DNA of 64,000 bases, from NCBI GenBank assembly GCA_030681135.1, contig JAUXXF010000033.1:8176-72175 (forward strand), written 5' to 3'. Under the pieces are notes generated by a model that saw only the letters and a list, made by a program, of their open reading frames with translations, was not told the DNA's origin and did not search any database. Made by a program: the position numbers and the translations under genes. The DNA comes from Chlamydiales bacterium. GTDB taxonomy: Bacteria; Chlamydiota; Chlamydiia; Chlamydiales; SM23-39. Of the stretch, positions 2,526 through 24,926 are shown one piece after another. How positions within the stretch are numbered: position 1 is the first letter of the stretch; the number at the start of each line of letters is the position of its first letter.

Positions 2526-2577
2526 TCATCTAACCGAGGATTAAAAAAAAACCTACTAGGCGTTAACAATTAAACCT

Positions 2578-7244: not shown

Positions 7245-7935
7245 AGAAAAGACAACGGTCAAGGAGATGTTTAACCACATCGCCAAGACCTATGACAAAA
7301 CCAACCGGGTCCTCTCTTTTGGGATGGACCTGCGATGGAGAAAACAGCTCGCCAAACATTTTCCAAACAAAAAAGAGATCCATCTTCTCGATCTTGCAAC
7401 AGGCACTGCGGATCAGCTCATTGCCCTCTTTGACTCAAAAGCACCGATTCGATCAGCTATAGGCATCGATCTTGCAGCCGAAATGATTCAAATCGGCGAG
7501 CAAAAAATTCGAAACAAGCCGTATAAAGACCAGATCGAGCTGCAAATTGGCGATGCCATGCACCTGCCTTTTGAAGAGGCAAGCTTTGAAGTATGCACCT
7601 TCTCCTTTGGTATTCGCAATATCCCAGATCCCCTGCATGGGTTAAACCAAATTCATCGCATCTTAAAACCTCAAGGGCGCTGCCTGATCTTGGAATTTTC
7701 GCTTCCTAAATTTCCCTTTAAATGGCCTTATTTACTCTATCTACGCTATATTCTCCCGTGGCTTGGAGGAAAACTCTCTCGCGCTCCGAAGGCTTATCGT
7801 TATTTAAACCGGACGATTGAAACCTTTCCTTCAGGATCTGCATTTGTCGGGCTCATGAAGCGAGCCGGATTTTCTCACGTAAAGGCGCATCCCATGGCCC
7901 TCGGCGCAGTGACTTTGTATGTTGGAGAAAAGTAA
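7222..7935 (+). CDS. ubiE: Demethylmenaquinone/ubiquinone C-methyltransferase UbiE/MenG
   Basis: 237 aa with the UbiE signature FNHIAKTYDKTNRVLSFGMDLRWRK and the SAM motif LLDLATGTAD. It overlaps the typA stop by 23 nt. Confidence 0.88.
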   Translation: MRENEPSKEKTTVKEMFNHIAKTYDKTNRVLSFGMDLRWRKQLAKHFPNKKEIHLLDLATGTADQLIALFDSKAPIRSAIGIDLAAEMIQIGEQKIRNKPYKDQIELQIGDAMHLPFEEASFEVCTFSFGIRNIPDPLHGLNQIHRILKPQGRCLILEFSLPKFPFKWPYLLYLRYILPWLGGKLSRAPKAYRYLNRTIETFPSGSAFVGLMKRAGFSHVKAHPMALGAVTLYVGEK

Positions 7936-7944
7936 AGGAAGCTA

Positions 7945-8991
7945 ATGGATCTTCTCAAGTGGCTGCAAGAGGTCACTGAATACCCCAAAATCTATTGGAA
8001 AGAACGTTCGAGTTCCACTGCTTTTGCAGGAGTTGGTGAAAGAGGACTCTCCTCTATCTCTTACGGCTGGCGCCATAGCTCTGCCAAACAAACCTGGTCC
8101 GATTTTCCAAAGAGCGCTCACATCACTCCCCGCCTAAGCTTTGAGACAACAACAAAAAGTGATCTTTCCTCTTTAGAAAAACCAAAAATCAAACAATGTC
8201 ACCTTCTCCCAAGTTACAATCACTGGTCCAAGCTAATCGAAAAAACGCTTAAAGCGATCGAAGAAAAGCAGTTCAAAAAATGCGTCTTGGCTCGAGAATG
8301 CAAATTTGAATTAGAAAAGCCAATTGATCCCTGGAGCCTCGTCGCAGCTCTTGAAAAGCGCGCTGAGAATGCCTATGTCATCTGCATCCAGCCAACAAGC
8401 CGCTCTGCCTTCATTAGCGTCACTCCTGAAATGCTTTTTTCCAGACAAGATCAGCTTCTTACAGTAGAGGCTCTTGCAGGCACGCAAAAACTCCATCAAA
8501 GCACTTCCTTTCCCCTTTCCCATCCCAAGCACAGACAAGAATTTTCTCTCGTCGAACAATCGATTGAAGAAGCTCTCCACACTGCTGGCTTAGGCCCCCT
8601 CACATTTTGTACGCCTTCCATCCGCACAACCTCTGGAGGGTTGCAACATCTCTATAGCCGCCTAGAGACTCAGCTCCCAGCTGGCATTGAAGATGACACG
8701 CTTCTCCAGGCGCTCCATCCCACAGCTGCTCTTGCAGGATTTCCTAAGGAGCCAGCAAGACAATTTCTTTATGATCATGAGCCGTTCGATAGAGGGCTCT
8801 ACGGCGCTCCTCTTGGACGAATGACAACAGACGACTCAACCTGGGTAGTAGGGATTCGCTCGTGTCTTCTCTTCGAATCAACAGCTACGCTCTACTCAGG
8901 AGCTGGCATCGTCTCGGGATCTGATCCACTCGCTGAATGGGAGGAGCTCGATCACAAAATTGCTCTTTTCAAGGAGATGCTTTTATCATGA
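7945..8991 (+). CDS. menF: Isochorismate synthase MenF
   Basis: 348 aa with a chorismate-binding C-terminal region (ALHPTAALAGFPKEPARQFLYDHEPFDRGLYGAPLG...GAGIV). It lies in a men gene context. Confidence 0.8.
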   Translation: MDLLKWLQEVTEYPKIYWKERSSSTAFAGVGERGLSSISYGWRHSSAKQTWSDFPKSAHITPRLSFETTTKSDLSSLEKPKIKQCHLLPSYNHWSKLIEKTLKAIEEKQFKKCVLARECKFELEKPIDPWSLVAALEKRAENAYVICIQPTSRSAFISVTPEMLFSRQDQLLTVEALAGTQKLHQSTSFPLSHPKHRQEFSLVEQSIEEALHTAGLGPLTFCTPSIRTTSGGLQHLYSRLETQLPAGIEDDTLLQALHPTAALAGFPKEPARQFLYDHEPFDRGLYGAPLGRMTTDDSTWVVGIRSCLLFESTATLYSGAGIVSGSDPLAEWEELDHKIALFKEMLLS

Positions 8992-9938: not shown

Positions 9939-10316
9939 TTACAGAAAAACAGGAAACGCTATGTCGATTTTATAGCTTGGATCTGAAGAAAAAAAAGATT
10001 CAAAATCAAAAAGCAGGTCAATATAAATTTTTCTTTCCTCCTTAGATTCTTTAAACGGAAGTTCTTCATGCAATATCAGAATTTTTCTTTTATGAAAATT
10101 CTTTAAATCGCACAAGCAATCATAAAATGCATCCCAATTTTCACCAAAATATATAGGAAATTGTAGTTTAGAAGAAAAGATCTCAAAGAGCTCTTCCTTT
10201 CTTTTAACACCCTTTTTAACGCATATAACTAAATCGCATTCCTTAGAATTTATTTCTTCTTTTTTCGAATAAAACAAAAACATATATTTCTTCTGTTTAG
10301 TTTTGTTACATGCCAT
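9939..10316 (-). CDS. Barstar-like RNase-inhibitor / immunity protein (orphan)
   Basis: 125 aa. The segment LQFPIYFGENWDAFYDCLCDL matches the barstar core [21 protein letters not shown]. It is the last gene of the immunity array downstream of the RHS toxin. Confidence 0.7.
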   Translation of the reverse strand: MACNKTKQKKYMFLFYSKKEEINSKECDLVICVKKGVKRKEELFEIFSSKLQFPIYFGENWDAFYDCLCDLKNFHKRKILILHEELPFKESKEERKIYIDLLFDFESFFSSDPSYKIDIAFPVFL

Positions 10317-10568
10317 TCATTCATAAAGTTTTCCTCCCATAAGAATATCAGCAAAAACTTTCCAATTGGGTTTTTCTGGAATCGGCAAACCCTGATTTAT
10401 ATAGAATCCATCCATATCTTCTACCCAAGATACCATTGCCCCTAAAAATGTCTCGATATCTCTATTTTCCCAAGATGATAAATCTTCAATGTAATCTTTT
10501 TTGAGAGCTCTTAAAAAAGATGTAAAACCTTCTTTTGTTTGAATTTTTTCAAATTCAGAGTATTTCAT
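10317..10568 (-). CDS. Hypothetical small protein, putative orphan immunity protein
   Basis: 83-aa ORF abutting the barstar-like gene (its stop lies next to that gene's start). Only its position in the immunity array supports the call; it contains a ...SSWENRDIETFLGAMVSWVEDMD... motif. Confidence 0.45.
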   Translation of the reverse strand: MKYSEFEKIQTKEGFTSFLRALKKDYIEDLSSWENRDIETFLGAMVSWVEDMDGFYINQGLPIPEKPNWKVFADILMGGKLYE

Positions 10569-10621
10569 TGAGATAACTTTGTATTAAATCAATCATAAAT
10601 TGCAAAAGCTGTTGCTGATGA

Positions 10622-10948
10622 TTATTCATCATAACTTAAAATACTATCACCTGTTAATTGTAAAAAACACCTTCCTGGTTGTCCGTCATGGATGATTTCA
10701 AGACTTTTTTTCTTCGCATCTAAAACTCTGATTTGAGAACATTTTTTCATATTCACACTTGCAACTGCTACGTCAGAATGATTACAAACAAGCACCCCAA
10801 CATAACATTCATAGATAGAAAATGATAGAGTTACAATTAAACCATCTGCGCGAGTAACTCTAAACCAATAGACGCCTTGTTCTTCATCAGTAGGAGGCGT
10901 TAAAAGTTCATCAAATATAATGAGCAATTCAGTAATATCGACTTTCAT
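10622..10948 (-). CDS. Hypothetical protein, putative orphan immunity protein (intact copy of duplicated cassette)
   Basis: The track ORF extends to 11050. The ATG at 10948 (MKVDITELL...) is preceded by GGAGGA, and the duplicated copy begins at the same point. No family recognised. Confidence 0.55.
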   Translation of the reverse strand: MKVDITELLIIFDELLTPPTDEEQGVYWFRVTRADGLIVTLSFSIYECYVGVLVCNHSDVAVASVNMKKCSQIRVLDAKKKSLEIIHDGQPGRCFLQLTGDSILSYDE

Positions 10949-11039
10949 TGTCCTCCAGGAATAATTGTTATGCTGGTATTTACAAAAAATTAATTCGCAA
11001 TCTCTTGACCATGTTCTAGATGCTGGAGAGTCAATTATT

Positions 11040-11327
11040 TTAATTTTCATTATTTTTTACTTCTAAAAGAAATTCCTTCATTTTAAAAAGTTCTTCTATA
11101 GCTTTGTGTTGTTCAATATTATTACCCTGAACAACACGACGTATCTCGAGTGGTGTCCAAAAATCATACCATCGATTAATAAGAACATTGTCTTGAATTT
11201 CAGAATTATCCAAGGCACCTTCAAGCTGGCCTACCAAACCACAAAAGTCATTAGTTTCTTCATTGAGATAACTTTGTATTAAATCAATCATACTCTGCCA
11301 AATTCGTTGTTGATGATTATTGATCAT
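11040..11327 (-). CDS. Hypothetical small protein, putative orphan immunity protein
   Basis: 95-aa ORF (MINNHQQRIWQSMIDLIQSYLNEE...). It overlaps the upstream pseudogene stop by 11 nt. A remnant of its N-terminus recurs at 10555-10629. Confidence 0.5.
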   Translation of the reverse strand: MINNHQQRIWQSMIDLIQSYLNEETNDFCGLVGQLEGALDNSEIQDNVLINRWYDFWTPLEIRRVVQGNNIEQHKAIEELFKMKEFLLEVKNNEN

Positions 11328-11643
11328 ACATCAAAATACTATCACCTGTTAATTGTAAAAAACACCTTCCTGGTTGTCCGCCACGAATAATTTCAAGATT
11401 TTTTTTCTTCTCATCTAAAACTCTGATTTCAGAGCATTTTTTTATACGCACGCTTGTGATTGCTACATCCGCATTATTACCAATAAGCACACTGACATAA
11501 CATTCATAGATAGAAAATAATAGGGTTACTACTAAACCATCAACACAGGTTGCTTCAAACCAATACACCCCCAGTTATTCATCCGTGGGTGGCGTTAAAA
11601 GCTTATCAAATACGATAAGTAATTGGGTAATATCGACTTTCAT
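11317..11643 (-). pseudogene. Disrupted duplicate of the 10622-10948 gene (in-frame TAA at codon 23)
   Basis: It has the same SD plus ATG (cat at 11641-11643) and the same MKVDITQLLIVFDKLLTPPTDE start. TAA at 11575-11577 replaces the Glu codon of the intact copy. The remainder (YWFEATCVDGLVVTLLFSIYECYVSVLIG...) stays colinear. Confidence 0.7.
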
Positions 11644-11712: not shown

Positions 11713-12024
11713 CTATTGGTCACAGATTTTTATCACTTGCCCATTTGCAACTTCTTTACCTTCCAATAAAGTTATATTCTTTCCAACAGCCAGATTTGGC
11801 AGCGCTAAATCTTTATCTAAAAATTTCACCGGAATTTCATAATACTTTCCTAATTCTATCTCCTTATCTCCAATTAATAAGCGACAGTCATATATTTTTC
11901 CATCAACCATCAAGGGACATCCATAAAAGTCTGGGCCTAACGTTGTCTTGCGTTTCAAAGACGTTTTACGCCCGCCTTCCTCGCTTGTCTTAAATCTTAC
12001 TCTAATATAAATATCAGGTTTCAT
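11713..12024 (-). CDS. Putative cognate immunity protein of the RHS toxin; EF-Tu domain III-like beta-barrel
   Basis: 103-aa ORF starting 10 nt after the RHS stop. The sequence ...KTSEEGGRKTS...PDFYG...ELGKYYEIPVKFLDKDLALPNLAVGKNITLLEGKEVANGQVIKI parallels EF-Tu domain III ([18 protein letters not shown]...[40 protein letters not shown]). Confidence 0.6.
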   Translation of the reverse strand: MKPDIYIRVRFKTSEEGGRKTSLKRKTTLGPDFYGCPLMVDGKIYDCRLLIGDKEIELGKYYEIPVKFLDKDLALPNLAVGKNITLLEGKEVANGQVIKICDQ

Positions 12025-12034: not shown

Positions 12035-12829
12035 TTATTTAGGAATTGTCATCCAAGTAATAATTTCAGGAATTAATCCTTCTAGGTTTCTATCATGAAT
12101 TACCCATGCAGGGATTCCTCCATCAACAAGGGTAGGCGGTATTCCATTAAGAATATTATTTGGCACTTGTGTTCTAACTAAAGTATACGGAGGATCGCCA
12201 AATCCTATTACAGCTTGTCTCGCATAAGAAGAAGCTCCTTCAATAGATGAAGTAAAATATTTTCCTTCTGCATCTCCTAAGTTACGGAAAATTCCTGTTT
12301 TTTGTATGTCTACAAGCTCTGCAGGTTGTACTACTCGATATAACGTTGTCTGAGATCCTTGCGTAGGTAAACGAAAATAAGGAAACGCGGCTAATTGACT
12401 TGTACGAATGGCAGCAGTGCCGCCCATGCTACCAACTATACTGAGGCCATTATCGATTAATCCCGCTACATAAGGCGAAAACCCCATTTCTTGCAATAGT
12501 TGGGAAGTGACGCTATCCTCCAAACTTCCTGCAAAAACTAGATTCATACCAGTGAAAAATTGATCAAGGCCATGAGCCATTACAAGGCAACCAAGAGGAG
12601 CTGCAACGCCTCCAGAAACAAACGTCATCCCTCCGCCAATACTCGCTTCTACAAGTCCGTTAAACGCTTGCATTGAGCCTTGAAAGTGGGGATTACTGAG
12701 AAAACCCATCCCAAGCGAACTTCCGACATCCCCTCCTCTTTTACAATCTCGATGTCGTTCGCAATGGCAATGGGGTTCATACTCGCCATAGAAGTACTTA
12801 GAAAATTCGTCACCATTAGTTTCAGAAGC
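12035..12829 (-). other. RHS C-terminal variable region (264 aa after DYFGL): Gly-rich hydrophobic pre-toxin segment plus ~105-aa unassigned toxin domain
   Basis: The region starts at ASETNGDEF. immediately after the conserved ..DYFGL boundary. It contains LDQFFTGMNLVF (reminiscent of the pre-toxin TG module). The terminal domain is TLYRVVQPAELVDIQKTGIFRNLGDAEGKYFTSSIEGASSYARQA... Confidence 0.6.
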
Positions 12830-15800
12830 GAGCCCAAAATAGTCTACGAATGTGAGAGGGTTATTGCGACAAAATCGATAAAGATTGGGATCGTCTAGGC
12901 TTCCCAGCGGATCGGGAGATATCCATCGACCCGTTTTAGGATCGTAGTAACGCTTGCCAAAGTAGATGAGCCCTGTTTCCTGATCGATGCGTTTGAGTTT
13001 GTATCTCCACGGATTTCCAATAGCAGAGTCGGCAATCTTCTTGCCTCTTTGATTGAACATCTCTTCTTCGCCAAAAGCAGAGTAACGATAGCTTTCTACT
13101 ATTTCACGTCGCTCAGGATCAACAAGACAAGAAACATTACCTTGGATGTCATAAAGAGGAACATAAGGCTCTTTTTTGATTTCGATGGCAATACAAGATG
13201 AGGGTTCTGGGTCATTTGGATTACCAGGAACCTTCAGCTCAAGGATATTCCCCTTCTCGTCAAGGCAGCCTAATTCTGTCTGTCCAAGATAAAAGTAACG
13301 ATATATCTTTGGTTTTTTACCTTTAGCTTCGACTTTCTTTGAGAGACGCTTCCCATTTAAATCATAGGTAAGGGCGATAGCTGTTTGATGAGGATCTTGA
13401 ATGGAGAGAAGATGGCCTAGAGGGCTCGTTTGAAAATTCCAAGTTTTTCCGAAAGCTGTCTTGATTTCTAAATGTCCCATGGGATTGAAGGAGAAAATCT
13501 CACCGCCTGCTTCCAACGTCTGATTTAAATCATTCGTTTTATAGGAAAGCCGATTTCCTAGAGAGTCGTAGGAATATGTATGTTCTTTTTCCCCTTTTTC
13601 AGAGATAAGCTCATGAAGAGCATTATATTCATACTCAGCGCTATGCGCTTGGCCATCTAAAGTTAAGGTTTTCTTCTTGATATTGTGGAAAAGGTCATAC
13701 CCACCTTCTGGCACTTCATCCGAAAGGAAATCAGTAAAAATCCCAGTTCTTCTACCAGCTTTATTCCAAGTTTGCTTTCTTTCGCCGACATGTCCAACTA
13801 GAACTTCTTCGAGAATATGTCCCATCTGATCGCGAGAGGTAATGCGGTGATTGTACAGCTCTTTTTTCTCTTTAGACTGACGTGATATAGATTTAACGAA
13901 AGGCCCCTCATACGTATATTTGATGAGAGAACCGTCGGGCAGCTGGATGACTTCAATACACCCTTGACCGTCATATTCAAGCTTAACTTCATATGTGCCA
14001 AATTCATCTTTGATTTTTTCAGATTTGAGCTGATTATTTGGGCTTCTCTTATAATGAATTGTACGAGATTTTCCGAGCTTGATTTCTGTAATGTTCTGTT
14101 TATTGTCATAAGAGAGTTGATATGTTGTCTTTTTAGCCTCGTTTTCATCTTTATAGGAAATGGATTGCACATTTCCTTCAGGATCGTACCCGTAGGTAAT
14201 GGGCTCTTTTATTCCTGGTTTGGTTATATTAAGAAGAGCTCCATAAATATCGTATTCCCATGCAGTTGTCCTCTCTTCTGAGCTTCCGGCAGCTATTGCC
14301 CTTGATTTGAGCTTATCTGCTGCATAGGATTCTTGGGTTTTATATGTTCTTAAAAAGTTTCCGTTAGCGATAACATCATTTTTTTCCAAGCGAAGATTAC
14401 CTGCCGCATCAAAGAAAAATGCTGATTCAGCAAGAATCTGTCCCCTACGATCTTTCTTTATAGTTTTAGCTAAACGACCTGCAGGATCAAAAATTTCCTC
14501 TGTTTGAGAGCCTAAAGGGTCTGTTGTGATCCGTTTTAGAACCTTTTGACCCCATTCATTCATATAGAGATCTTCGTTTTCAATGTGAGTGATCGATCCA
14601 AAGGGATCTTTTATCTCTCGAAGATGCCCAAAATCATCATATTCGTATGTGGCGAGAATACTTTCCTGGTTTTGCGGATAGCCGATGATTTTTTGAAGCT
14701 GTCCCGCATGATGATAGATGCAGCGACTCTTTAAGAGGACTTTCCCTTGAGCATCTTCGGTTCTTTCTTCTATCACTCGATCCAAAAGATCTCGCTCTTT
14801 GACTTCAAGAGTAAACGTTTTGGCTGATTTCCATTTCTTGGCAGCATAAGCTCTTCCCAGAGAGTCGTAAAGAAATTCAGTTTTCTGATCTCCTTTAGTT
14901 AAAACGGAAAGGCGACCCGCCCCATCGTAGGCATAAGTCGTTATGGCCCCTTCTACGTCTTCATGGGAGATCACTTGGAAGGCGTCATATTCATAGTACT
15001 CTCTCTTAAATCCTTCCCTCTTTCCTTTACTTCCCCTCTCGTAATATTCTATGTGGGCAAGCCTCCCTTGGTAGTCATACTCAAAAATTCTGATGATTCC
15101 ATCTCGCCCAAGGTGCCGGTGAAGACTACCTTCTGGGTCATACTTAAATAATTCTTTCGTTCCATCGGGATAACTGATCGAAGCTGGACTCCCATGAACG
15201 GTATATGTTTTTTGAGTCACTCCTCCTGTGGGATCTGTCATGCTGAAAATAGATCCAAAAAGGTCATAGCTATAAGCATAAGAAGGTGTAATAGAAGAAT
15301 ATTCATCTGTCTGAACTTTAGGATAGCTCACAAAAATAATACGCCCGAGATCATCAGGAACATAGACCGTTTTATGGCCAAAATGATCTGTTTCGGAGGT
15401 TTTATTTCCTGCAGCATCGTAGGTATACAAAGTCTCGAAACAGTTGCCTTGACCATCTTTTTCCCTTGAGCAAATGAGGCGATTTTTTAAATCATACTGA
15501 TATTCAAAGGAGAGATTTGAATTGGACTGAACTATTGAAGTCAGATTTTGGTTGTCATCGTAAGTATAGCGGGTTTCATTTCCAAGAGGATCTGTTTCTA
15601 AAGAAAGCAATCCTTGTTCGTAGATTTTTTTTAGAGTATAGCGATGATCTCCTTTCGCATCATAAATCGCAATCGATTGAACATTTCCCTGGCGGTCAAA
15701 ACCAAATATCCTCTTTTTTAAAAGAATTTCCTGGCCTTTTTTGGGATCTAAATATTTTTCCTCAATCATCTCAGGAGCTCCTACATGAGGAAGCTCCTGT

Positions 15801-17443
15801 TTAGGAGTAATAATTGTCATTTGCCTTTCATAAATATCACAAGCAGATTCAAAATCTTCTTCATCTCCATCATCGACTACAGTCTGTATCAAAGCTCCAT
15901 CATCGTTATAAGAATAAAACCATCTCTTCTTGATTTTCTTTTTATCGAAAAGGAGTTTTTTAAGAAGAAGGTCAGTACCTTTTTTGTAATACAGTTTAAC
16001 GCTGCTGCCTTTATGATCCTTTTGGCTAATGATATCTATATCTTTGACTGAGCGACACGAGTAGTTTTTGGCATGAGATTTTTGATATGAGTAAGGAACT
16101 CCCTCTTCATTCAAGGCTAGAGACTGAAGACTGCTCCCTGTTAAATGGCCATATTCTTTCTCTCCAATAAGATGACCTTTACCGTTATATGTAAAGCTCT
16201 TGTAGTAATGGGTTGCTCCATTTCCGTCTTCTACAGATATTGCAATCAAATTTGAAGCATCTTGTTTTTTTCCCAAAAATTTCTTATGAACTCGATAAAG
16301 CTCTCCGCCCAAATATTGTTCTATTGCAGTCAGTTGAAATTCATCATTAAATCGATAGACAGATTTTTGAGTTAAAGGCCCATCTACTTGGGTAAAACCA
16401 GAGCCATCTTCTTCTGTAGTAAAGGCAAACCGGATACTGGCGTTATCACTGATCCCTGCAGGAGTTGTTAGGGATTTAACTTTATTCCTATTTGTCTCAT
16501 CAGAATAATAATCGACTTCTACAAACCGCCCTTCAGGCAAATCTTTTTTTATAAGAAGAGGATGATCATCTACCATTCGGTATTCATATTTTAAAGTAGG
16601 CTTATCAGATCGAATCACCTCAGATAAAAGAGGGAAATCTTGTTGAAAGTGATATTCGACAGTTTTATGATCACTGGTATCAATATGGATGATAGAGCCG
16701 TAGTGAATCTTGATCCAACTAAGAACCTTTTCTTCCGAAGCGTTTGTCATTTTGATCTGAGAAAGAGCTACTCCCTCGTATTCATAAAAAAGTTTGTTCC
16801 CGCTTGGGAGAATTTCCAGTTCTAGAAGATAAAGATCTGAGGAGGATGAGCTGGGTACATAAAATCTTTTCCCTCCAGAACTTAGGAAAAGCTCAAAACA
16901 GTTACTTTGAGCATCAAAATAGAGTTGGTTATTTTTGAGATTTGTCCAGGCATTAATATTCCCTCTAGCTGTGTTGGCAAGCCCCAAAAGACTATCTTCG
17001 ACATCGACTTTAAATAAAGAACGAACCTGAGGATTTGTCATATTTCGCCATCCAGAATAGGTCAAAATACTTCCCTCATTAGTCCCTATGAGAATGTGGG
17101 TGGAATCGAATTTCCCCTCTGAGGTCGTGTACGACTTAACATGGGTTTCTTTTTGAATGGACAAAAAACAGTGAGGATTAAATCGCCATCCCCCTAAAGA
17201 AGAGCATCCTAAAAGATGATCCCGGCTACTATAGTATCGAGCAAGGACAAGGGAATCAGGCCCTGGAAGAACAAGATCCACCTCATAATCTGAGTAATCG
17301 CCATAAATTGTACTGACATTTTCGACCAAACTTTCAGGATCGCTCTCTCGCGATCCTAAAGAGGCGTTATACAAAGAATGTTCACTCGCAGCAGCCTTAA
17401 ACAACCAAAAGAAAGCTAAAGTCAAACCCAGGAAATAGCGCAT
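12035..17443 (-). CDS. RHS/YD-repeat polymorphic toxin with N-terminal signal peptide and variable C-terminal toxin region
   Basis: 1802 aa with the signal-like N-terminus MRYFLGLTLAFFWLFKAAAS. It has many YD repeats (YTYDDNQNL, YTYDAAGNKTS, YAYDGAGRLS, YEYDDFGHL, YGYDPEGNV, YSYDSLGNRL). The core-end motif is GKRYYDPKTGRWISPDPLG...LYRFCRNNPLTFVDYFGL. Confidence 0.92.
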   Translation of the reverse strand: MRYFLGLTLAFFWLFKAAASEHSLYNASLGSRESDPESLVENVSTIYGDYSDYEVDLVLPGPDSLVLARYYSSRDHLLGCSSLGGWRFNPHCFLSIQKETHVKSYTTSEGKFDSTHILIGTNEGSILTYSGWRNMTNPQVRSLFKVDVEDSLLGLANTARGNINAWTNLKNNQLYFDAQSNCFELFLSSGGKRFYVPSSSSSDLYLLELEILPSGNKLFYEYEGVALSQIKMTNASEEKVLSWIKIHYGSIIHIDTSDHKTVEYHFQQDFPLLSEVIRSDKPTLKYEYRMVDDHPLLIKKDLPEGRFVEVDYYSDETNRNKVKSLTTPAGISDNASIRFAFTTEEDGSGFTQVDGPLTQKSVYRFNDEFQLTAIEQYLGGELYRVHKKFLGKKQDASNLIAISVEDGNGATHYYKSFTYNGKGHLIGEKEYGHLTGSSLQSLALNEEGVPYSYQKSHAKNYSCRSVKDIDIISQKDHKGSSVKLYYKKGTDLLLKKLLFDKKKIKKRWFYSYNDDGALIQTVVDDGDEEDFESACDIYERQMTIITPKQELPHVGAPEMIEEKYLDPKKGQEILLKKRIFGFDRQGNVQSIAIYDAKGDHRYTLKKIYEQGLLSLETDPLGNETRYTYDDNQNLTSIVQSNSNLSFEYQYDLKNRLICSREKDGQGNCFETLYTYDAAGNKTSETDHFGHKTVYVPDDLGRIIFVSYPKVQTDEYSSITPSYAYSYDLFGSIFSMTDPTGGVTQKTYTVHGSPASISYPDGTKELFKYDPEGSLHRHLGRDGIIRIFEYDYQGRLAHIEYYERGSKGKREGFKREYYEYDAFQVISHEDVEGAITTYAYDGAGRLSVLTKGDQKTEFLYDSLGRAYAAKKWKSAKTFTLEVKERDLLDRVIEERTEDAQGKVLLKSRCIYHHAGQLQKIIGYPQNQESILATYEYDDFGHLREIKDPFGSITHIENEDLYMNEWGQKVLKRITTDPLGSQTEEIFDPAGRLAKTIKKDRRGQILAESAFFFDAAGNLRLEKNDVIANGNFLRTYKTQESYAADKLKSRAIAAGSSEERTTAWEYDIYGALLNITKPGIKEPITYGYDPEGNVQSISYKDENEAKKTTYQLSYDNKQNITEIKLGKSRTIHYKRSPNNQLKSEKIKDEFGTYEVKLEYDGQGCIEVIQLPDGSLIKYTYEGPFVKSISRQSKEKKELYNHRITSRDQMGHILEEVLVGHVGERKQTWNKAGRRTGIFTDFLSDEVPEGGYDLFHNIKKKTLTLDGQAHSAEYEYNALHELISEKGEKEHTYSYDSLGNRLSYKTNDLNQTLEAGGEIFSFNPMGHLEIKTAFGKTWNFQTSPLGHLLSIQDPHQTAIALTYDLNGKRLSKKVEAKGKKPKIYRYFYLGQTELGCLDEKGNILELKVPGNPNDPEPSSCIAIEIKKEPYVPLYDIQGNVSCLVDPERREIVESYRYSAFGEEEMFNQRGKKIADSAIGNPWRYKLKRIDQETGLIYFGKRYYDPKTGRWISPDPLGSLDDPNLYRFCRNNPLTFVDYFGLASETNGDEFSKYFYGEYEPHCHCERHRDCKRGGDVGSSLGMGFLSNPHFQGSMQAFNGLVEASIGGGMTFVSGGVAAPLGCLVMAHGLDQFFTGMNLVFAGSLEDSVTSQLLQEMGFSPYVAGLIDNGLSIVGSMGGTAAIRTSQLAAFPYFRLPTQGSQTTLYRVVQPAELVDIQKTGIFRNLGDAEGKYFTSSIEGASSYARQAVIGFGDPPYTLVRTQVPNNILNGIPPTLVDGGIPAWVIHDRNLEGLIPEIITWMTIPK

Positions 17444-17520: not shown

Positions 17521-20500
17521 CTAAAACAGATCTTCGTCGATCTCTTCTTTTTCCCCGCGGAACCGTTTGGCAGCAGGAGCCTCTGAAATATCAGGATTAA
17601 ATAGAGGACGTTTGCTAGGCAGTTCTTTTACATTCAGATACTTTAAGGCCTCTAGAGCCTTCACAGCGCCATAATCAGTCAAACCAGCAGGCATCTCTGG
17701 TTCATCCAGATCGAAGATAATACACTTTTGCAGCATGCTCTCTCTTGCAACACCTTCCCACTCAGGAGGAAGAACTCCCTCATTCTCTAATAGCTCAATG
17801 AATTTGTTATAAAGAACCATGTTTTCTTGAAAAGCGCTTGCCTTTTGCAATTTTTCAATGACCAGTTTTGGAGTGAAAAATTTAAAAAAAGATTTCTGAA
17901 ACTTATCAGCGCTCAGTCTAAAAATATTGTCATGAAGTACTTCAGAATGTTGATCAAAAAAAAGATCGCCATATCTTAGCCCGACGACTCGAGCCCATTT
18001 TGCTTTAAGATAAAGCGTCTGGTGAGATAGTTCTCCTACTTTCTTAGAGTTCGCTAAATCGAAAATAAACGAGGAAGATTCAAATAGCTCTTCTAATGCA
18101 GTTTGGACTGACTCATCAACGAGCTGAGAAAATTCTGCATGAGAGTCTTGATAAAGACCTTGAACCTTATTTTCTCCTTGAAACAGAATATTAAAAACCC
18201 GACTCAGAGCGTCAGCTTGACCTGTTGGGCAAGAAACTAAAAGTGCGGCAAATTTAATCAAGATTTGTTCTTGTTCGCTTAAAAGATCTGTTTGTGAAAT
18301 CTCTGAAGAGGAGCTAAAAATTTTCTCAGCTATGAGCGCAAATTGCAAAAGATTTTCAGGCACTTCAGCATCAGAAGGCCCTACAATCAACTCCTCATAG
18401 AGTCCTATACACTTCTTAAACAAAGTGCTACCTAAAAAGTATTCCTCCATCACCTTTAAGCTGGAATGATTGGACAAAATTGTAATGTGCGCCTTCGCAA
18501 CCTCTTTTTCTTTTGGCTCTAGGGAGTCAATACGTAATCCTATTTTTTCGAAAAGCTCAGAGAAACGGCCTTCAGACAATCCTTTGGGTAAAGAGCGAGC
18601 AGTCCATTTTCGCGCCAGTCCTTTCTCTTGAAGGGTGCCTTGATCCCAAGTGAGTTCAAGAGGATCTTTTTTCCCAATGACATAAGAAGGAACATTCGGG
18701 AATCGAGCAACTGGGTTTAGCCTATTTATTAAAAGCTCACTATAAATATGATAGGGGTTCTTTGGTGAGTTGCGAGGAACTGAAAGAGTGTACTGACTTC
18801 TTTTCACCGCAACTCTAAGAGGATGGTTATTTGGCAAATCGAAATCATTGGCTAGCTCGAGAGCTAAGTGAGTAGCTGTCAAAGCCAAACGGATGTGAGG
18901 CTCCTGGCAAACTGAAGAAAGATGCTCAAAAAGCATGGCTCCAAATAGGGGGGTTTTCTTTGCATGATTGTTGACAGTTTTTACAGAAAACTTTTGAACA
19001 GATCGAACCGTTTTAAAAAAATCAAGCCACTCTTTAAGAGGCATTAAAGGGATGTTTTCAAAGAACAAAGTTACTTGAGATGTAAAACCTTCTTCCTCTG
19101 CTTTTAACAATTGTACTTGGAGCTCCGATAAAATAGCTTCAGGATCTCCCTTAATGGCAGAAATTGCATGAAAGAGAAATAAACGAGAATTTGGAGGTAG
19201 ATTTATCTTAAAAGGCCTTAGAAACTCAACAAATCTGTAGAGAAATTCCATCCGCTCCGATTCTGCTTTCTTATAAAGAAGATCGAAAAATCCCATAAAA
19301 GTCACAGAAGAATTATTATCCTGAAACAAATCGAGAAAAACTTGAAGAGTAGATAGTTCAGGTTTTGCAATCGACATCGGAAAAAGTTTTGTCATTTTCT
19401 CGAGGTTGGTGGAATATGCGCTAATTAAATTGGCTAAGCTAGTCTTAGGTTCAAAATTTTCTTTCGTGATTCGTTCTTTGATAGTGTGTAAGACTTTTAA
19501 ACCAATACCAGGCTTGATTTTTCTAATTTCCTTCACAAACGAACAAAAATTCTCGCAAGGTTTTTCCTTGAATAAGGTGGCAAACAAGCTAATGAGTTCG
19601 AGATTTCTCTTCAGATGATTTGAAGGCAATTGAACGACTATAGCAAGAATAAAGCAACGCGCCTTAAACAAATCAGTTTTGTAATTTGGGAAAAATTTAC
19701 CAAGTCTATCAATCTCTTGATAAAAAGCTTCTTCAACAAGATCGATTTCTAAAATCTGATTTGATTCTCTTTTGAAAAAAGGATATAAGCAATTTAAAAG
19801 TTCTTTAGCAATATTGTATTCATCAACTCCGTCCACAAGGACATGACCCAGTTTTAATGTTAGTGAGGTTAACTCTCTAACTCTCGAAGAATCGCAATAG
19901 GTAAACAGATCTTCAAAAAAGCTATCAAAAAGGTGATAAATCGCTGTCTTCTGAGCCTGATCTTCATAAAAGCGAGAAATCAAAGAGCCCAATACTCGAT
20001 CGATTTGCTTTTCGTCTTCAGAGTCACCGAATGTTTGCCTCATCCGACAAAATTGCACAAAAAATGACGTCAGTTTTTTGTAATGATCAGGTATGTCTAC
20101 TTTCTGCTTTGGAACTGGATCAAAAGAAAATAAAAATTGACCATAAGTCTCGATCGTAGTTTTTAGTGATTCTGGACAAAAAGTAGGCAAAGTCTCTTTT
20201 AAAGATTCGAGAACACGGAAAAGAGGCTCAACTTGGGGAGAAACTTCAAAATCATCGGACCACATCGGAAAAGGATAAACTCCTGTGATATCGAGTAACC
20301 ATAAGAGCAACTTCTGTCTCTCTTGAGGAGTTTCGACTTGATCAACAACAGCGAAAATATCTTTTATTACAGACTCCGCATATTTTGTTTTTGTAAAAAG
20401 AGCTGTCATCTTTTGTTTTATTTGTTGATAAAATAAAGGATCTTTCTGCAAGGATTTTAAAAAATACATAGGATTCTTACGAGGTAATAGGTCGACTACT

Positions 20501-21183
20501 CTTTGCGCTTTGCTCTCATAAAAATTTAATTCTAAGCTATTGATATTCGGCATTTCAGGATCCAATATATCAAAAAAGCGAATCATTCCTTCAAATTGAT
20601 CCATGGAGTCCCAACAAGATAATCCAAATGAACGAAAGTAAGAGTCGGTTAATGTGAAAAGGAAAAAGCGATGATCGAAAGAGATAAGGTCCAACGCGTC
20701 CTCGAATTCATCAAAGAGCTGAGTTAAGCGAGTGGTGAGATCAGAATCATTACGTCTTTTTAACGGATGAAACAGCGTATAAGCGATCAGCGCTAAAAAA
20801 GCAGAAGTTCCAGCTGGCGGATGTTTAAAAAACCTTCCGACACCAGTCATTAAACGGCTCGAACTTTTTAGCTCTTCACATAAGGTGAGCCATGCACCCT
20901 TTTCCATAATAGAGTTTCTGATAAGACCTTCAACCTCTTCGGAAGTTATTCCATGATATTCGACGAATTTGTAAAAAAACGCATCAAGAGCAGGCCATTC
21001 CGTGTTTCTTTCAAAACGAAGCTGTTCTAATACTTTACTAGCCAAATTTTTAGCGGAAGTTCTTAAATGATGAGTTTCCCTAGAATGACTAGAAGCTGGT
21101 TTAGAAAGATCAGACGAATTTTCATTAAAAAACACATCTTGTTGAGAACCTAAATTTTGAAAAGGAGAAATTCGAAATGACAT
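17521..21183 (-). CDS. Large hypothetical protein (1220 aa), predicted all-alpha, no recognised domain
   Basis: Long uninterrupted ORF with no motif I recognise. The C-terminus is ...SKRPLFNPDISEAPAAKRFRGEKEEIDEDLF. A very AT-rich region lies upstream (21184-21376). Confidence 0.7.
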   Translation of the reverse strand: MSFRISPFQNLGSQQDVFFNENSSDLSKPASSHSRETHHLRTSAKNLASKVLEQLRFERNTEWPALDAFFYKFVEYHGITSEEVEGLIRNSIMEKGAWLTLCEELKSSSRLMTGVGRFFKHPPAGTSAFLALIAYTLFHPLKRRNDSDLTTRLTQLFDEFEDALDLISFDHRFFLFTLTDSYFRSFGLSCWDSMDQFEGMIRFFDILDPEMPNINSLELNFYESKAQRVVDLLPRKNPMYFLKSLQKDPLFYQQIKQKMTALFTKTKYAESVIKDIFAVVDQVETPQERQKLLLWLLDITGVYPFPMWSDDFEVSPQVEPLFRVLESLKETLPTFCPESLKTTIETYGQFLFSFDPVPKQKVDIPDHYKKLTSFFVQFCRMRQTFGDSEDEKQIDRVLGSLISRFYEDQAQKTAIYHLFDSFFEDLFTYCDSSRVRELTSLTLKLGHVLVDGVDEYNIAKELLNCLYPFFKRESNQILEIDLVEEAFYQEIDRLGKFFPNYKTDLFKARCFILAIVVQLPSNHLKRNLELISLFATLFKEKPCENFCSFVKEIRKIKPGIGLKVLHTIKERITKENFEPKTSLANLISAYSTNLEKMTKLFPMSIAKPELSTLQVFLDLFQDNNSSVTFMGFFDLLYKKAESERMEFLYRFVEFLRPFKINLPPNSRLFLFHAISAIKGDPEAILSELQVQLLKAEEEGFTSQVTLFFENIPLMPLKEWLDFFKTVRSVQKFSVKTVNNHAKKTPLFGAMLFEHLSSVCQEPHIRLALTATHLALELANDFDLPNNHPLRVAVKRSQYTLSVPRNSPKNPYHIYSELLINRLNPVARFPNVPSYVIGKKDPLELTWDQGTLQEKGLARKWTARSLPKGLSEGRFSELFEKIGLRIDSLEPKEKEVAKAHITILSNHSSLKVMEEYFLGSTLFKKCIGLYEELIVGPSDAEVPENLLQFALIAEKIFSSSSEISQTDLLSEQEQILIKFAALLVSCPTGQADALSRVFNILFQGENKVQGLYQDSHAEFSQLVDESVQTALEELFESSSFIFDLANSKKVGELSHQTLYLKAKWARVVGLRYGDLFFDQHSEVLHDNIFRLSADKFQKSFFKFFTPKLVIEKLQKASAFQENMVLYNKFIELLENEGVLPPEWEGVARESMLQKCIIFDLDEPEMPAGLTDYGAVKALEALKYLNVKELPSKRPLFNPDISEAPAAKRFRGEKEEIDEDLF

Positions 21184-21376: not shown

Positions 21377-23002
21377 ATGAATAGCCGCATGGCCTGGTGG
21401 GTCATCGATCAACTTGTACAGCAAGGAGTGCGCCATATCTGCCTGGCTCCAGGTTCCCGCTCTACACCTCTTGCTCTTGCAGCAGCTCACCACAAAGCAG
21501 CCAAACTCCATATCCATTACGATGAAAGAGGTCTCGGCTTTTATGCGCTTGGGCTAAGTCTTGCAACCGGAGTCCCCGCAGCTGTCATTGTCACTTCAGG
21601 CACTGCTGTGGGCAATTTACTCCCCTCGGTCATGGAAAGCTTCCATAGCCACACGCCGCTTATCTTGCTCACTGCAGATAGACCCCCTGATTTACTCTAC
21701 GCAGGAGCTAATCAAACTTGTGACCAACTCAATCTCTTTGGCCATTTTGTAAGAGGCCAAATCCATTTACCTACTGCTGAGAGTCACGTGACAGAAAACT
21801 ACGTCCGCTCGAGCATTGCTCATGGCGTATGTCTTGCAACAGAAGCTCCAGGGGCTGTCCATATCAATTGGCATATCCGCGAGCCTCTTTTCACTCCCCC
21901 TTTCCCCCATTTACCAGAAGGCAATCCCATTAAGCTGGTTCATTCAGAAGCTACGCCTAAAATCTCTACAAAACTATCGGGGCGAGGAGTGATTGCTATA
22001 GGAAAGCTCCCTTCTACAACTGATCTACAGCCGATTTTGACGCTCGCAAAAAAGCTCTGCTGGCCCATCTTTGCAGATCTCCTCTCACAAGCCCGCTTGA
22101 CACCTACAGAAGAACAAATCCTCCATTTTGACTCGATCTTAAAAGAGGGGTCAATACCTGCTGAGACCATTCTTCATTTCGGAGACCGGCTCACAGCAAA
22201 AACATTTCTCAGCTACAGTCCTCAGGCCAGACGAATCCACGTCAGCCCTTGGACAGACCTTCAAGATCCAACCCGCCTACTTACCGAAAGAGTGATCGGG
22301 GCTCCTAGTGCTTTTTGCAGATCCGCTGAGATTTCACCCGCCCCGATAGACTGGCTTGCTAGCTGGAAGGAAAAAGATCGAAAGATCCAAAGCCATATCA
22401 AAGCTTCTTTGGAAGACACTTCTTCTTGCACAGAACCTCATAGCTTCTATGCTCTAGCTCAATGTTTTCATGAAAACGATTCTCTCTACTTAGGCAGCGG
22501 TATGCCCATCCGAGATGCAGATTACTTTTTCTTTCCTTCTTCTATGAAAGGGCGCGTTTTTTCTAACCGCGGACTATCTGGCATCGATGGCAATATCGCT
22601 ACCGCAGCCGGCCTCTCAGAAGGACTACAAAGTCCACTTATGGCCTGGGTTGGGGATCAGGCAGCTTTGCACGATTTAAACTCTCTTCCCATGCTCAGCA
22701 GCTCTAAATATCCCATTTTGCTGATCATCTCCAATAATTTTGGCGGCGGCATTTTTTCTCATCTTCCCGAGATACCATCCACTCCCCACTTCGAAACACT
22801 TTTCGCCAATGCCCACTCCTGGAACTTTGCTCAAGCGGCGCAGCAATTCCATCTCCCCTACTACAAAGCAACCTCTGTCGAAGAACTGATTCGATTGTAT
22901 AAGACAAATACACATGGCTCTAGCGTGATCGAGCTCATCACATCAAGAGAACTCAATTATGCATGCCATCGAGCGCTACGAGAAACCCTGATGGTTTTTT
23001 AG
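21377..23002 (+). CDS. menD: SEPHCHC synthase MenD (2-succinyl-5-enolpyruvyl-6-hydroxy-3-cyclohexene-1-carboxylate synthase)
   Basis: 541 aa with the ThDP-enzyme N-terminus WVIDQLVQQGVRHICLAPGSRSTPLALA typical of MenD and a C-terminal ThDP-binding region GDQAALHDLNSL...NNFGGGIF. Confidence 0.88.
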   Translation: MNSRMAWWVIDQLVQQGVRHICLAPGSRSTPLALAAAHHKAAKLHIHYDERGLGFYALGLSLATGVPAAVIVTSGTAVGNLLPSVMESFHSHTPLILLTADRPPDLLYAGANQTCDQLNLFGHFVRGQIHLPTAESHVTENYVRSSIAHGVCLATEAPGAVHINWHIREPLFTPPFPHLPEGNPIKLVHSEATPKISTKLSGRGVIAIGKLPSTTDLQPILTLAKKLCWPIFADLLSQARLTPTEEQILHFDSILKEGSIPAETILHFGDRLTAKTFLSYSPQARRIHVSPWTDLQDPTRLLTERVIGAPSAFCRSAEISPAPIDWLASWKEKDRKIQSHIKASLEDTSSCTEPHSFYALAQCFHENDSLYLGSGMPIRDADYFFFPSSMKGRVFSNRGLSGIDGNIATAAGLSEGLQSPLMAWVGDQAALHDLNSLPMLSSSKYPILLIISNNFGGGIFSHLPEIPSTPHFETLFANAHSWNFAQAAQQFHLPYYKATSVEELIRLYKTNTHGSSVIELITSRELNYACHRALRETLMVF

Positions 23003-23029
23003 CTGGTTTAGAAAAGAAGATTTTGTATG

Positions 23030-23197
23030 TCACAATTTCCATTTGCGTTTAATTTCTTCCCAGGGAATAACACCGTTTTTCTTTGTATCCGCTAAAGCCT
23101 CGTGCGCATCTTCAAGATCTATTTTAGCTTCAGCTGATTTGACCTGCTCATGAAGGAAACCTTCCTCCAATGCTTTAAATGTAATTCGAAAAATCAT
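23030..23197 (-). CDS. Small hypothetical ORF (55 aa), below the ORF-track cutoff
   Basis: ATG at 23197, TGA at 23030-23032. The translation is MIFRITFKALEEGFLHEQVKSAEAKIDLEDAHEALADTKKNGVIPWEEIKRKWKL. The C-terminal half resembles tails of small antitoxin-type proteins, but no partner gene is present. Confidence 0.3.
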   Translation of the reverse strand: MIFRITFKALEEGFLHEQVKSAEAKIDLEDAHEALADTKKNGVIPWEEIKRKWKL

Positions 23198-23251
23198 ATT
23201 TACCTGGGAAAAGGTACCGGAAACTACTTAAAAAAACAAACTTTATCACCA

Positions 23252-24163: not shown

Positions 24164-24926
24164 TTCTCCCTTCTTGTCCTTCTTCCGTCATATAAAAAAG
24201 CATCGTTGCATTCCCTGCAAGTTCTTGCAAGCCCGCTTGGCCATCGCAATCGGCATTCAAACCCGCCTTCATACATCGAAGAGCCATTGGCGAATGGGCA
24301 AGAATTTCACGGCACCATTGCACAGTTGTCTCTTCAAGTAGCTCATAAGGTACCACACAATTGACGAGTCCCATATCAAGCGCCTGCTGAGCATCATATT
24401 GGCGGCATAAAAACCAGATTTCGCGCGCTTTTTTTTGCCCTACAATTCGCGCCAGAAAACTCGCTCCATAGCCTCCATCAAACGACCCCACTTTAGGTCC
24501 AGTCTGTCCAAACTTTGCATTCTCTGCAGCAATGGTTAGATCACATAAGACATGAAGCACATGACCTCCTCCGATAGCATAACCTGCTACCATCGCAATC
24601 ACAGGTTTAGGACATGTCCGAATCTGTCTTTGAAAATCGAGGACATTGAGACGATGAACGCCTTGTCCATCCACATAGCCAGCATCCCCTCGAATTTTCT
24701 GATCTCCCCCTGAACAAAACGCCTCTTTGCCAGCGCCTGTTAAAATGATGCAACCAATTTCTTGATCATGGCGAGCGTCATCCAAAGCATGGCTCATCTC
24801 ATCCACTGTCAACGGGCGGAATGCATTACGCCTTTCAGGACGATTGATCGTGATCTTCGCAATCCCTTCCATCTTGTGATAGAGAATATCTGTGTACTGC
24901 CCTACTTGGTTCCACGGAAATGTCAT
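24108..24926 (-). CDS. menB: 1,4-dihydroxy-2-naphthoyl-CoA synthase MenB
   Basis: Crotonase fold with the MenB-typical sequence [34 protein letters not shown]...[11 protein letters not shown]...GGGHVLH. The likely start is MTFPWNQ at 24926 rather than the track start 24980. Confidence 0.92.

Follow-up and report, generated by a model that had tools for sequence, protein, structure and literature searches.

Polymorphic toxins of the RHS class that carry an ADP-ribosyltransferase (ART) tip and a small immunity protein are well known, and Sec-exported RHS toxins have been catalogued for over a decade; as a class, therefore, the locus described here is ordinary. It lies on the reverse strand of a 64,000-nucleotide stretch of DNA from a Chlamydiales bacterium (GenBank assembly GCA_030681135.1, contig JAUXXF010000033.1, positions 8,176 to 72,175; hereafter the window), and consists of a gene for an RHS protein of 1802 amino acids (aa) followed by a gene for a 103-aa immunity protein. 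Two of its parts appear to be undescribed: the family to which the toxin tip belongs, and an immunity protein derived from elongation factor Tu (EF-Tu) as the companion of a toxin. Of all its features the most telling, which the first-pass annotation had missed, is the kinship of the 103-aa protein to EF-Tu domain III, seen in profile comparisons and a structural model.

The one known EF-Tu-specific Rhs ART is TreTu, which is paired with the immunity protein TriTu in Rhs-main of Salmonella Typhimurium (7ZHL, 7ZHM; PMC9825190). TreTu and the tip reported here are both minimal ART tips of about 110 aa at an Rhs C-terminus, with a small neutraliser gene directly downstream, and two residues needed for TreTu toxicity, R6 and E12 (PMC9825190), are mirrored by R1703 and E1709 of the window protein, in each case a strand-1 Arg with a helix-1 Glu six residues on. 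TreTu ADP-ribosylates EF-Tu (PMC9825190), whereas for the window toxin EF-Tu is implicated through the immunity protein. Other features set the two systems apart. Searches with phmmer and profile hmmsearch against all PDB chains, 7ZHL and 7ZHM included, gave no match at E up to 10, and in place of TreTu H31 and W68 the window family has no conserved His or Trp at comparable positions, but a K-Y-F-T-x-S motif and an Asp. TriTu consists of a flat sheet of five strands and two helices, while the model of the window immunity protein is the beta-barrel of EF-Tu domain III. TreTu is delivered by a type VI secretion system (T6SS) and acts on the P-loop of the G domain (PMC9825190), whereas the window carrier has a predicted Sec signal, with no PAAR or VgrG in the window open reading frames (ORFs) that were checked.

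In layout, the locus matches the RHS toxins of the Sec or type II secretion system ('T2SS') type (Zhang et al. 2012, PMC3482391) and the Gram-positive WapA: a signal peptide, a shell, an exchangeable tip, an immunity gene and an orphan array, without PAAR or VgrG. That survey already places chlamydiae among the lineages with such toxins; its toxin and immunity tables include neither the window tip nor the immunity family, and the part of its text that was searched makes no mention of EF-Tu. ARTs of the R-S-E clade share with the window tip a strand-1 Arg in an [LF][YWF]R context, a Y-F-[TS]-[TS]-[ST] strand 2 and a split beta-sheet in which a later strand bears an acidic residue. Unlike them, the window domain is much smaller, has an Asp for the Q/E-x-E motif and lacks a significant Pfam ART match, its triad being assigned by alignment. 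Interbacterial toxins are known to target EF-Tu or to use it as a cofactor (PMC9825190; 10.1101/2025.10.28.685041), and Serratia Rhs2-CT, Tse6 and the CdiA-CT toxins of E. coli NC101 and EC869 physically bind it (10.1101/2025.10.28.685041). These, however, are nucleases or NADases whose folds and immunity proteins are unrelated to those of the window, and none has been reported with an EF-Tu-derived immunity protein. Tne5 (PMC13285283) likewise has an ART-like fold at an Rhs C-terminus and a small downstream immunity protein; compared by description rather than by sequence, it differs in its Lys/Glu pocket, its PAAR-type T6SS carrier and the lack of an EF-Tu link.

The toxin tip and its partner

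Neither the 264-aa C-terminus of the RHS protein nor its last 123 aa gave anything useful against Pfam (E up to 10) or the PDB, and the tip itself had no significant match in Pfam, NCBIfam or PDB sequences, either as a single sequence or, against the PDB, as a profile. Membership of an existing Pfam ART family was considered and rejected, since ART-PolyVal was touched, at E 0.15, by no more than 2 of the 29 members scanned. An exhaustive hidden Markov model (HMM) search found 1,335 cluster representatives at E up to 1e-3, with 133 of them at E up to 1e-30, and the domain thus appears to form a new family of at least that many clusters, outside every Pfam and NCBIfam model. In practically all of the 150 representatives listed it sits at the C-terminal end of the protein, and these proteins range from 90 to 3,802 aa.

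An ART fold for the tip is well supported by modelling. An AlphaFold2 (AF2) model built from the family alignment reached a predicted local distance difference test score (pLDDT) of 87.7 and a predicted template modelling score (pTM) of 0.79, and a Foldseek search of the PDB with this model returned ART-superfamily structures only, at probabilities of 0.9-1.0. The lowest E-values belong to TreTu (7zhm/7zhl; E 5e-3, probability 1.0, template modelling score (TM) 0.47), which at 113 aa is of the size of the query; CC0527, Tpt1/KptA, diphtheria toxin, ExoA, ParT, PARP10 and RhsP2 come next, and the viral Foldseek library yielded small phage ART-like proteins. Conserved in at least 90% of 30 sequences are R1703, which ends strand 1; E1709, six residues on, on helix 1; K1728-Y-F-T-x-S1733, which makes up strand 2; Y1753; and D1774, which is near-invariant and replaced by Glu in one member. 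By their pattern of conservation, R1703, Y-F-T-x-S1733 and D1774 resemble transferase-type triads. The first-pass annotation, made from the window sequence, had left the last 105 or so residues unassigned, with a weak hunch of an R-S-E ART. That hunch holds at the level of the modelled fold, and the residues to which it pointed (the Arg of LYR, the KYFT.S strand and a downstream Asp) are indeed conserved; any subclade or chemistry is tentative, because ART folds can also be NADases. The domain is acidic across the family (median isoelectric point, pI, 5.5), which fits a protein or NAD+ as substrate better than a nucleic acid.

The gene for the 103-aa protein begins 10 bp past the RHS stop codon and has an AAGGAG ribosome-binding site. 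Its product has 97 relatives, the nearest at 87-93% identity; the named one among these, at 87%, comes from a Chlamydiia metagenome-assembled genome (MAG), and the remoter named relatives are from Parachlamydiaceae, Chlamydiota and Simkaniaceae. By itself the sequence has no match to EF-Tu by phmmer or in Pfam, GTP_EFTU_D3 included, and the relationship surfaced only by profile and structure. With the family profile, 10 of 10 PDB matches are EF-Tu, aligned end to end with domain III and having EEGGR(H/K)TP in common, and hhalign against the domain III segment of Pseudomonas EF-Tu gave a probability of 86.6%, E 4.5e-6 and 29% identity. An AF2 model (pLDDT 92.8) took the comparison further: the top 50 Foldseek matches are all bacterial or mitochondrial EF-Tu, with TM 0.72-0.78, E 2e-5 and, for most, a root-mean-square deviation of 2.1-2.5 A, and none of the 50 comes from another member of the barrel superfamily. 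Among the Foldseek matches is 5i4q, a structure of CdiA and CdiI with EF-Tu domains 2-3.

Beyond the fold, the family and EF-Tu have the motifs EEGGR.TP and EG.[KR]..G.V in common. Across six phyla, G17-G18-R19 and E88-G89...G95 are the counterparts of the two 'GGR' loops of EF-Tu; G17, G18, R19, E88, G89 and G95 are at least 90% conserved, with loop consensus sequences of E-G-G-R-[KH]-[TS]-P and E-G-[KR]-x-[IV]-[AG]-x-G. C36-P37 and D46-C47-R48 are specific to the family. The median pI of 6.1 shows that the protein is no acidic mimic of a nucleic acid. On the strength of profile and model, the 103-aa immunity protein is a free-standing homologue of EF-Tu domain III. Full-text literature searches found no earlier description of an EF-Tu-like or EF-Tu-derived immunity protein.

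The two genes travel together. HMM scans for the toxin and a domain-III-like gene covered 37 loci, plus two more divergent pairs; contig ends (L017, L027) and truncated or fragmentary toxins (L032, L033, L036, L037) were left out of the count. Every full-length toxin domain with downstream DNA (32 of 32) has a domain-III-like gene behind it, which either overlaps the toxin gene or begins at most some 35 bp away, and the members of the two additional pairs are likewise adjacent. The hosts span at least six phyla: Chlamydiota, Verrucomicrobiota, Pseudomonadota (Gamma- and Betaproteobacteria), Bacteroidota, Myxococcota and Desulfobacterota (Desulfobulbaceae). Toxin and immunity protein also diverge together, with a Mantel correlation of 0.69 between their distances that was reached in 0 of 5000 permutations. 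Within Chlamydiota, the shells are 27-40% identical, as against 65-74% for the tips and 73-80% for the immunity proteins, so the cassette moves between carriers.

Orphan copies of the immunity gene occur as well. In Simkaniaceae and other Chlamydiia, immunity arrays that follow an orthologous RHS gene with another tip include the domain-III-like gene as an orphan, and the islands that hold these arrays often carry integrases and transposases. A housekeeping role in chlamydiae was considered for the 103-aa gene and discarded: outside Chlamydiota the gene lies directly behind the toxin, and inside the phylum it lies in RHS immunity arrays on mobile islands. In one set of Chlamydiia metagenome contigs (L049-L053), a gene for an 1832-aa RHS protein with another tip is followed by a 93-aa, a 129-aa and a domain-III-like gene (L052 without the 129-aa call), with phage-type integrases, DDE transposases and AAA_21/RloB genes on the flanks of the island. 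P0070, the orphan variant of the immunity protein found there, is indexed in 53 collection blocks, and the island is therefore common in sampled environments.

Two other loci depart from the usual arrangement. In Gayadomonas joobiniege G7, a second and much weaker match to the toxin profile (L024, 8632-8922, E 2.9e-14) gives the order toxin, immunity gene, divergent toxin-like ORF. On the chromosome of Delftia sp. PS-11 (L035, 7995-8323), the toxin is in two overlapping pieces in different frames and the domain-III-like gene downstream is intact; this is probably a frameshifted toxin whose immunity gene was kept.

Architecture of the RHS carrier

The first-pass annotation had described a complete 1802-aa RHS protein with a classical N-terminal signal peptide, a YD-repeat shell, a conserved shell-closing motif and a 264-aa variable C-terminus. 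All of this is borne out (Table 1), the signal peptide by heuristic prediction. The gene call, Pfam (RHS_repeat PF05593, E 1.6e-37, with a precomputed TEN_YD-shell match) and NCBIfam (YD_repeat_2x TIGR01643, E 3.5e-30) agree on the full-length protein. Its N-terminus has the n/h/c layout of a Sec signal, in which a short basic stretch leads into a hydrophobic core (residues 3-15, Kyte-Doolittle maximum 2.13 over 11 residues) and then AAA-S; the peptide is predicted from hydropathy and the c-region, and the chlamydial orthologues L005, L008, L038 and L041 have equivalent signals. DUF6531, an N-terminal element typical of non-PAAR RHS proteins, is present too on the same-tip carriers L008, L022, L025, L030 and P0198.

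The core-closing motif LYRFCRNNPLTFVDYFGL occupies residues 1521-1538 and ends in VDYFGL, a motif of the DPxGL type that marks off the toxin; by analogy with characterised Rhs and TcC cores and from the conserved core motif, an autoproteolytic release site is predicted after L1538. RHS proteins from a Chlamydiota MAG and from two genomes of Simkaniaceae align with the window protein collinearly from end to end (39-40% identity), and the named relatives of its N-terminus are Chlamydiota or Candidatus Rhabdochlamydia. Together with the relatives of the 103-aa protein, they make the source a probable environmental member of Chlamydiota. Orthologous shells bear another tip in L038, L041 and L049-L052, which makes the protein polymorphic in the usual sense.

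Table 1. Features of the RHS locus and of the small ORFs behind it, in window positions
Feature	Positions	Strand	Basis
Complete RHS/YD-repeat polymorphic toxin gene	12035..17443	-	Single ORF, ATG start, 1802 aa plus stop
Predicted Sec signal peptide, residues 1-19 (MRYFLGLTLAFFWLFKAAA, then S of SEH)	17387..17443	-	Hydropathy, AxA-type c-region
DUF6531, residues 42-100	17144..17320	-	Pfam PF20148, E 1.9e-5 (full protein), 2.8e-6 (N-terminal fragment)
YD-repeat shell, residues about 101-1453	13085..17143	-	RHS_repeat, YD_repeat_2x, TEN_YD-shell
Rhs-associated core, residues 1454-1538, ending NNPLTFVDYFGL	12830..13084	-	Rhs_assc_core TIGR03696, E 5.7e-23, model positions 1-76 of 76
Module A, Cys/His-rich linker (FYGEYEPHCHCERHRDCKRGGD), residues 1539-1578	12710..12829	-	BLAST mapping of P0007, P0008, P0009, P0011, P0030, P0035, P0041
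Module B, Gly-rich low-charge pre-toxin module, residues 1579-1695 (NP.FQG.MQAF.GL.E...GGG...AP.G....HG.D.F.TG...)	12359..12709	-	Homologue mapping and alignment
C-terminal toxin domain with modelled ART fold, residues 1696-1802 (~107 aa)	12038..12358	-	Alignment, AF2, Foldseek
Cognate immunity gene, 103 aa, stand-alone EF-Tu domain III homologue by profile and model	11713..12024	-	Profile, hhalign, AF2, Foldseek, linkage
Five further small ORFs after the immunity gene	9939..11568	-	ORF list, Pfam, GC content
Paralogous small ORFs	11317-11568 and 10622-11050	-	73% identical over 83 aa; family without Pfam match
Small ORF of the array	11040-11327	-	ORF list
DUF7660 ORF	10317-10568	-	Pfam, E 1.5e-30
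Barstar ORF	9939-10316	-	Pfam, E 2.1e-16

When the 264-aa region beyond the core (residues 1539-1802) was used as a query, 44 relatives were found, and their mapping divided it into three modules (A, 1539-1578; B, 1579-1695; C, about 1696-1802). Module A is kept in chlamydial RHS proteins that bear other toxin tips. Its Cys/His-rich motif EPHCHCERHRDCKRGGD, which is kept in several of these proteins, stands immediately after the point of predicted autocleavage and might bind a metal or form disulfides; at the same position, Simkaniaceae orthologues have a different Cys-rich stretch.

Module B, in which the motif LDQFFTGMNLVF stands at residues 1626-1637, is found upstream of unrelated tips in P0006, P0007, P0009, P0011, P0016, P0024, P0032, L038 and L041, Simkaniaceae orthologues being among these carriers. 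With 18 Gly in 117 residues it is borderline hydrophobic (19-residue hydropathy maximum 1.58); it has no Pfam match, and its profile gave chance-level matches only against PDB sequences. The first-pass annotation had likened this Gly-rich segment to the pre-toxin TG module, a suggestion that did not hold up: none of 12 family members (0/12), nor the window segment, matched the PT-TG model (PF14449) at E up to 10. Because chlamydial RHS proteins that end in other tips have module B too, its role is probably in delivery or in translocation across a membrane and not in toxicity itself. In module C, the GKYFTSS stretch around strand 2 falls at residues 1727-1733.

Delivery and the surroundings of the locus

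Of the 40 window ORFs with 150 aa or more, 39 were covered by Pfam scans or precomputed matches; ORFs 48839-49696, 49746-50525 and 50647-51762 were left out of the scans. Among the ORFs checked and in the RHS protein itself, Pfam found no T6SS, PAAR, VgrG, Hcp or Tc component, and neither the RHS protein nor its neighbours showed an SpvB/TcdB_mid/FG-GAP N-terminus or a TcA gene. The observation in the first-pass annotation that no T6SS, PAAR, VgrG or Tc partner lies nearby is thus correct for this set. The novelty that it attached to the missing T6SS falls away, as Sec/'T2SS'-type RHS proteins are a standard class that in the survey of polymorphic toxins (PMC3482391) extends to chlamydiae, and 14 sampled same-tip carriers in other bacteria, 13 of them with a complete N-terminus, have no PAAR or VgrG either. 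The gene was also said to sit alone with its immunity genes. That holds in that small immunity-type ORFs lie downstream and no second RHS-like sequence is present in the window.

Carriers of the same tip are diverse. They include DUF6531-RHS proteins with signal peptides, TcB-like RHS proteins with SpvB, FG-GAP and TcdB_mid (TcB-like domains in L010, L027 and P0188), a Kelch/teneurin-like RHS protein, PT-HINT proteins and an ankyrin/YopT-like protein. In two MAGs, L007 and L019, of Verrucomicrobiae and Akkermansiaceae, a protein of about 140 aa consists of a signal peptide and the toxin domain and is followed by a domain-III-like gene; judged from these gene models, the tip exists also as a small stand-alone secreted toxin.

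The five small ORFs behind the immunity gene are probably orphan immunity genes, and no orphan RHS C-terminal fragments were found among them. Identical promoter-like strings recur 695 bp apart in this array, where 10622-11050 and 11317-11568 form a duplicated small-ORF cassette; promoter and terminator scans around the RHS locus gave sites no more frequent than in shuffled sequence. GC content falls to 0.31-0.34 at 10-12 kb. The RHS island of about 12 kb, which contains a GT17-like glycosyltransferase, the immunity array, the RHS gene and a 1220-aa ORF, is flanked by menaquinone genes, with a UbiE-type methyltransferase and a chorismate-binding enzyme on one side (7222-8991) and MenD, a UbiA-type prenyltransferase and an ECH/MenB-like enzyme on the other (21377-24980). 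It looks like an insertion into a men gene cluster. The flanks of the locus show no synteny with the named comparison loci.

The 1220-aa ORF (17521-21183, minus strand) lies 78 bp upstream of the RHS gene and has no match in Pfam or NCBIfam; as a conserved export partner it was rejected, there being no Pfam match and no homologue beside RHS genes in seven other chlamydial loci. At 26257-37835, also on the minus strand, ten same-strand ORFs of 150-410 aa have only sub-threshold Pfam matches (YabA, EH_Signature). A hidden contractile or T6SS-like cluster at 26-38 kb was considered and dropped, with no support from Pfam or PADLOC. Two autotransporter-type genes mean that type V secretion substrates are present in the window, where T6SS parts are not: a 1297-aa classical autotransporter (55641-59534, minus strand; Autotransporter beta-domain and PATR repeat) and an 830-aa protein with an inverse-autotransporter beta-domain and a right-handed beta-helix (52569-55061, plus strand). 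The gene at 44065-45879 (minus strand) encodes 604 aa with TPR repeats and, at the C-terminus, an Ntox50 domain (E 8.5e-24), but without RHS repeats, and is, by its domain content, a second polymorphic-toxin-type or effector gene of the window; a 254-aa ORF without Pfam match (43395-44159) overlaps its 3' end. At the opposite end of the window, three consecutive paralogous genes (503-3794, plus strand) encode lactonase/NHL-type beta-propeller proteins of 344, 296 and 368 aa. DNA of the window was matched in a groundwater metagenome run.

A proposed mechanism and its alternatives

EF-Tu is proposed as the target because the nearest structural neighbour of the tip by E-value, TreTu, is EF-Tu-specific and the immunity protein is EF-Tu-derived; since that protein is a copy of EF-Tu domain III, EF-Tu is the likely target. 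On balance, and by a modest lean, we favour a Sec-exported RHS toxin whose ART tip modifies bacterial EF-Tu, recognised via domain III, and whose producer is shielded by a decoy made of that same domain. The signal peptide would be cleaved as the protein crosses the inner membrane. The YD shell would enclose the C-terminal region, which would be cut free after VDYFGL (L1538), so that the released piece would comprise the Cys/His linker, the Gly-rich low-charge module and an enzyme of about 107 aa; module B would help in crossing a membrane, on a presumed route over the outer membrane and into the target cell. There the ART-fold tip, using NAD+, would ADP-ribosylate bacterial EF-Tu, docking via domain III, and translation would stop in the rival bacterium. 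The 103-aa protein would be a domesticated EF-Tu domain III that keeps both 'GGR' loops and acts as a high-affinity decoy on the substrate-binding or active-site face of the toxin, and bystanders with an orphan immunity copy would be protected too.

Several points weigh against this account. The tip resembles TreTu only modestly (TM 0.47, 16% identity, no match in sequence searches), and diphtheria-toxin and ExoA-type domains score higher in query-normalised TM (0.55-0.61), so a specific kinship to TreTu cannot be claimed. The residue that TreTu modifies, D21, is in the G domain, its presumed anchor is helix D rather than domain III, and TriTu has a different fold (PMC9825190); the two hints at EF-Tu thus describe no single known mechanism, and the window toxin would work by a different mechanism and not as a TreTu orthologue. 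The single-profile E-values that link the immunity family to EF-Tu in the PDB are individually weak (0.1-1.3), and the third catalytic residue of the toxin is uncertain. That the genome beyond the window also lacks a T6SS is presumed. An ART fold can moreover belong to an NAD(P) glycohydrolase, as in Tne5 (PMC13285283). Finally, a divergent domain-III-like protein, P0140, is encoded among housekeeping genes with no toxin nearby. It is 132 aa long and 41% identical over the aligned part (L047, 68-466; L048, 2166-2564), its neighbours are MreB, DNA polymerase III delta', RRF and an M50 peptidase, and its gene may be for orphan immunity or may serve another role.

The glycohydrolase chemistry leads to an alternative that we regard as unlikely, in which the tip is an ART-fold NAD(P)+ glycohydrolase of Tne type that depletes NAD+, EF-Tu is an entry or activation cofactor, as for Tse6 and Serratia Rhs2, and the immunity protein competes for the EF-Tu surface or caps the NAD+ pocket. 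It would suit the third acidic residue, which is not as clear-cut in the toxin as in a classical R-S-E triad, and EF-Tu entry 4zv4, which we take to be EF-Tu in the Tse6 complex, is among the PDB matches of the immunity profile. Tne5 is precedent for ART-fold Rhs tips that are NADases without transferase activity (PMC13285283), and Serratia Rhs2-CT for a toxin that requires EF-Tu for intoxication and not for catalysis (10.1101/2025.10.28.685041). The strand-1 Arg, the S/T-rich strand 2 and the near-invariant Asp nevertheless resemble transferase-type triads, the nearest structures by E-value are transferases, and nothing specifically indicates hydrolysis.

We are similarly doubtful that the EF-Tu domain III fold is a mere recruited beta-barrel scaffold that plugs the active site, the real target being unrelated (FtsZ, for example, or another component). 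Immunity proteins of ART toxins do usually occlude the NAD+ cleft with a beta-sheet or loop (PMC9825190, PMC13285283), and that of TreTu is itself unrelated to EF-Tu (PMC9825190). Against a mere scaffold stand the EF-Tu-specific loop sequences that the family keeps beyond the fold, with the six Gly, Arg and Glu positions listed above at 90% conservation or more over six phyla, and the top fold matches, which are all EF-Tu itself and not other barrels.

Less probable still is that the tip ADP-ribosylates a nucleic acid, such as tRNA (possibly EF-Tu-bound aminoacyl-tRNA) or rRNA, in the manner of RhsP2, TreThr and Tre23, and that the immunity protein reflects recognition of the ternary complex. 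The 'GGRHT' loop of EF-Tu domain III lies on the face that binds the tRNA T-stem, and RNA 2'-phosphotransferases (Tpt1/KptA) and RhsP2 are among the fold matches of the tip. RNA-targeting Rhs ARTs are also documented (PMC9825190 among the sources). The family-wide acidity of the toxin is, however, unusual among RNA- or DNA-binding toxins, and the immunity protein is no acidic mimic of a nucleic acid.

That the toxin is aimed at the eukaryotic host of the chlamydia, for instance at mitochondrial EF-Tu, with immunity only against self-harm before export, is very improbable: chlamydiae are obligate intracellular bacteria with many host-directed effectors (PMC3482391), and mitochondrial EF-Tu structures are among the matches of the immunity profile and model, but free-living bacteria such as Lysobacter, Burkholderia, Delftia, Myxococcota and Bacteroidota widely carry the cassette, orphan immunity genes in chlamydiae without the toxin indicate exposure of bacterium to bacterium, and the same survey deems likely host-directed those endosymbiont toxins that have no immunity gene, whereas the window toxin has one.

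Under the EF-Tu decoy account, a broader claim may also be made, although we hold it tentatively and with less assurance than the account itself: the immunity protein would be a domesticated fragment of the toxin's target, a decoy against a widespread minimal ART family that recognises EF-Tu through domain III, in a Sec-exported, T6SS-independent warfare of chlamydia against chlamydia in which orphan decoys spread as protection. If true, target recognition and mode of immunity would be distinct from those of TreTu and TriTu. Should the decoy idea hold, the immunity sequence would directly name both the target and the binding surface of the toxin, and the pair would be a clear case of an immunity protein that evolved from a piece of the target. 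From the EF-Tu ancestry of the immunity protein, the target and mechanism of a large unannotated family can therefore be predicted directly and in testable form. Seen from the gene content of these genomes, the spread of the cassette and the orphan immunity genes in Simkaniaceae, Parachlamydiaceae and other Chlamydiia suggest that interbacterial conflict is active among obligate intracellular chlamydiae, in which it has so far been little studied.

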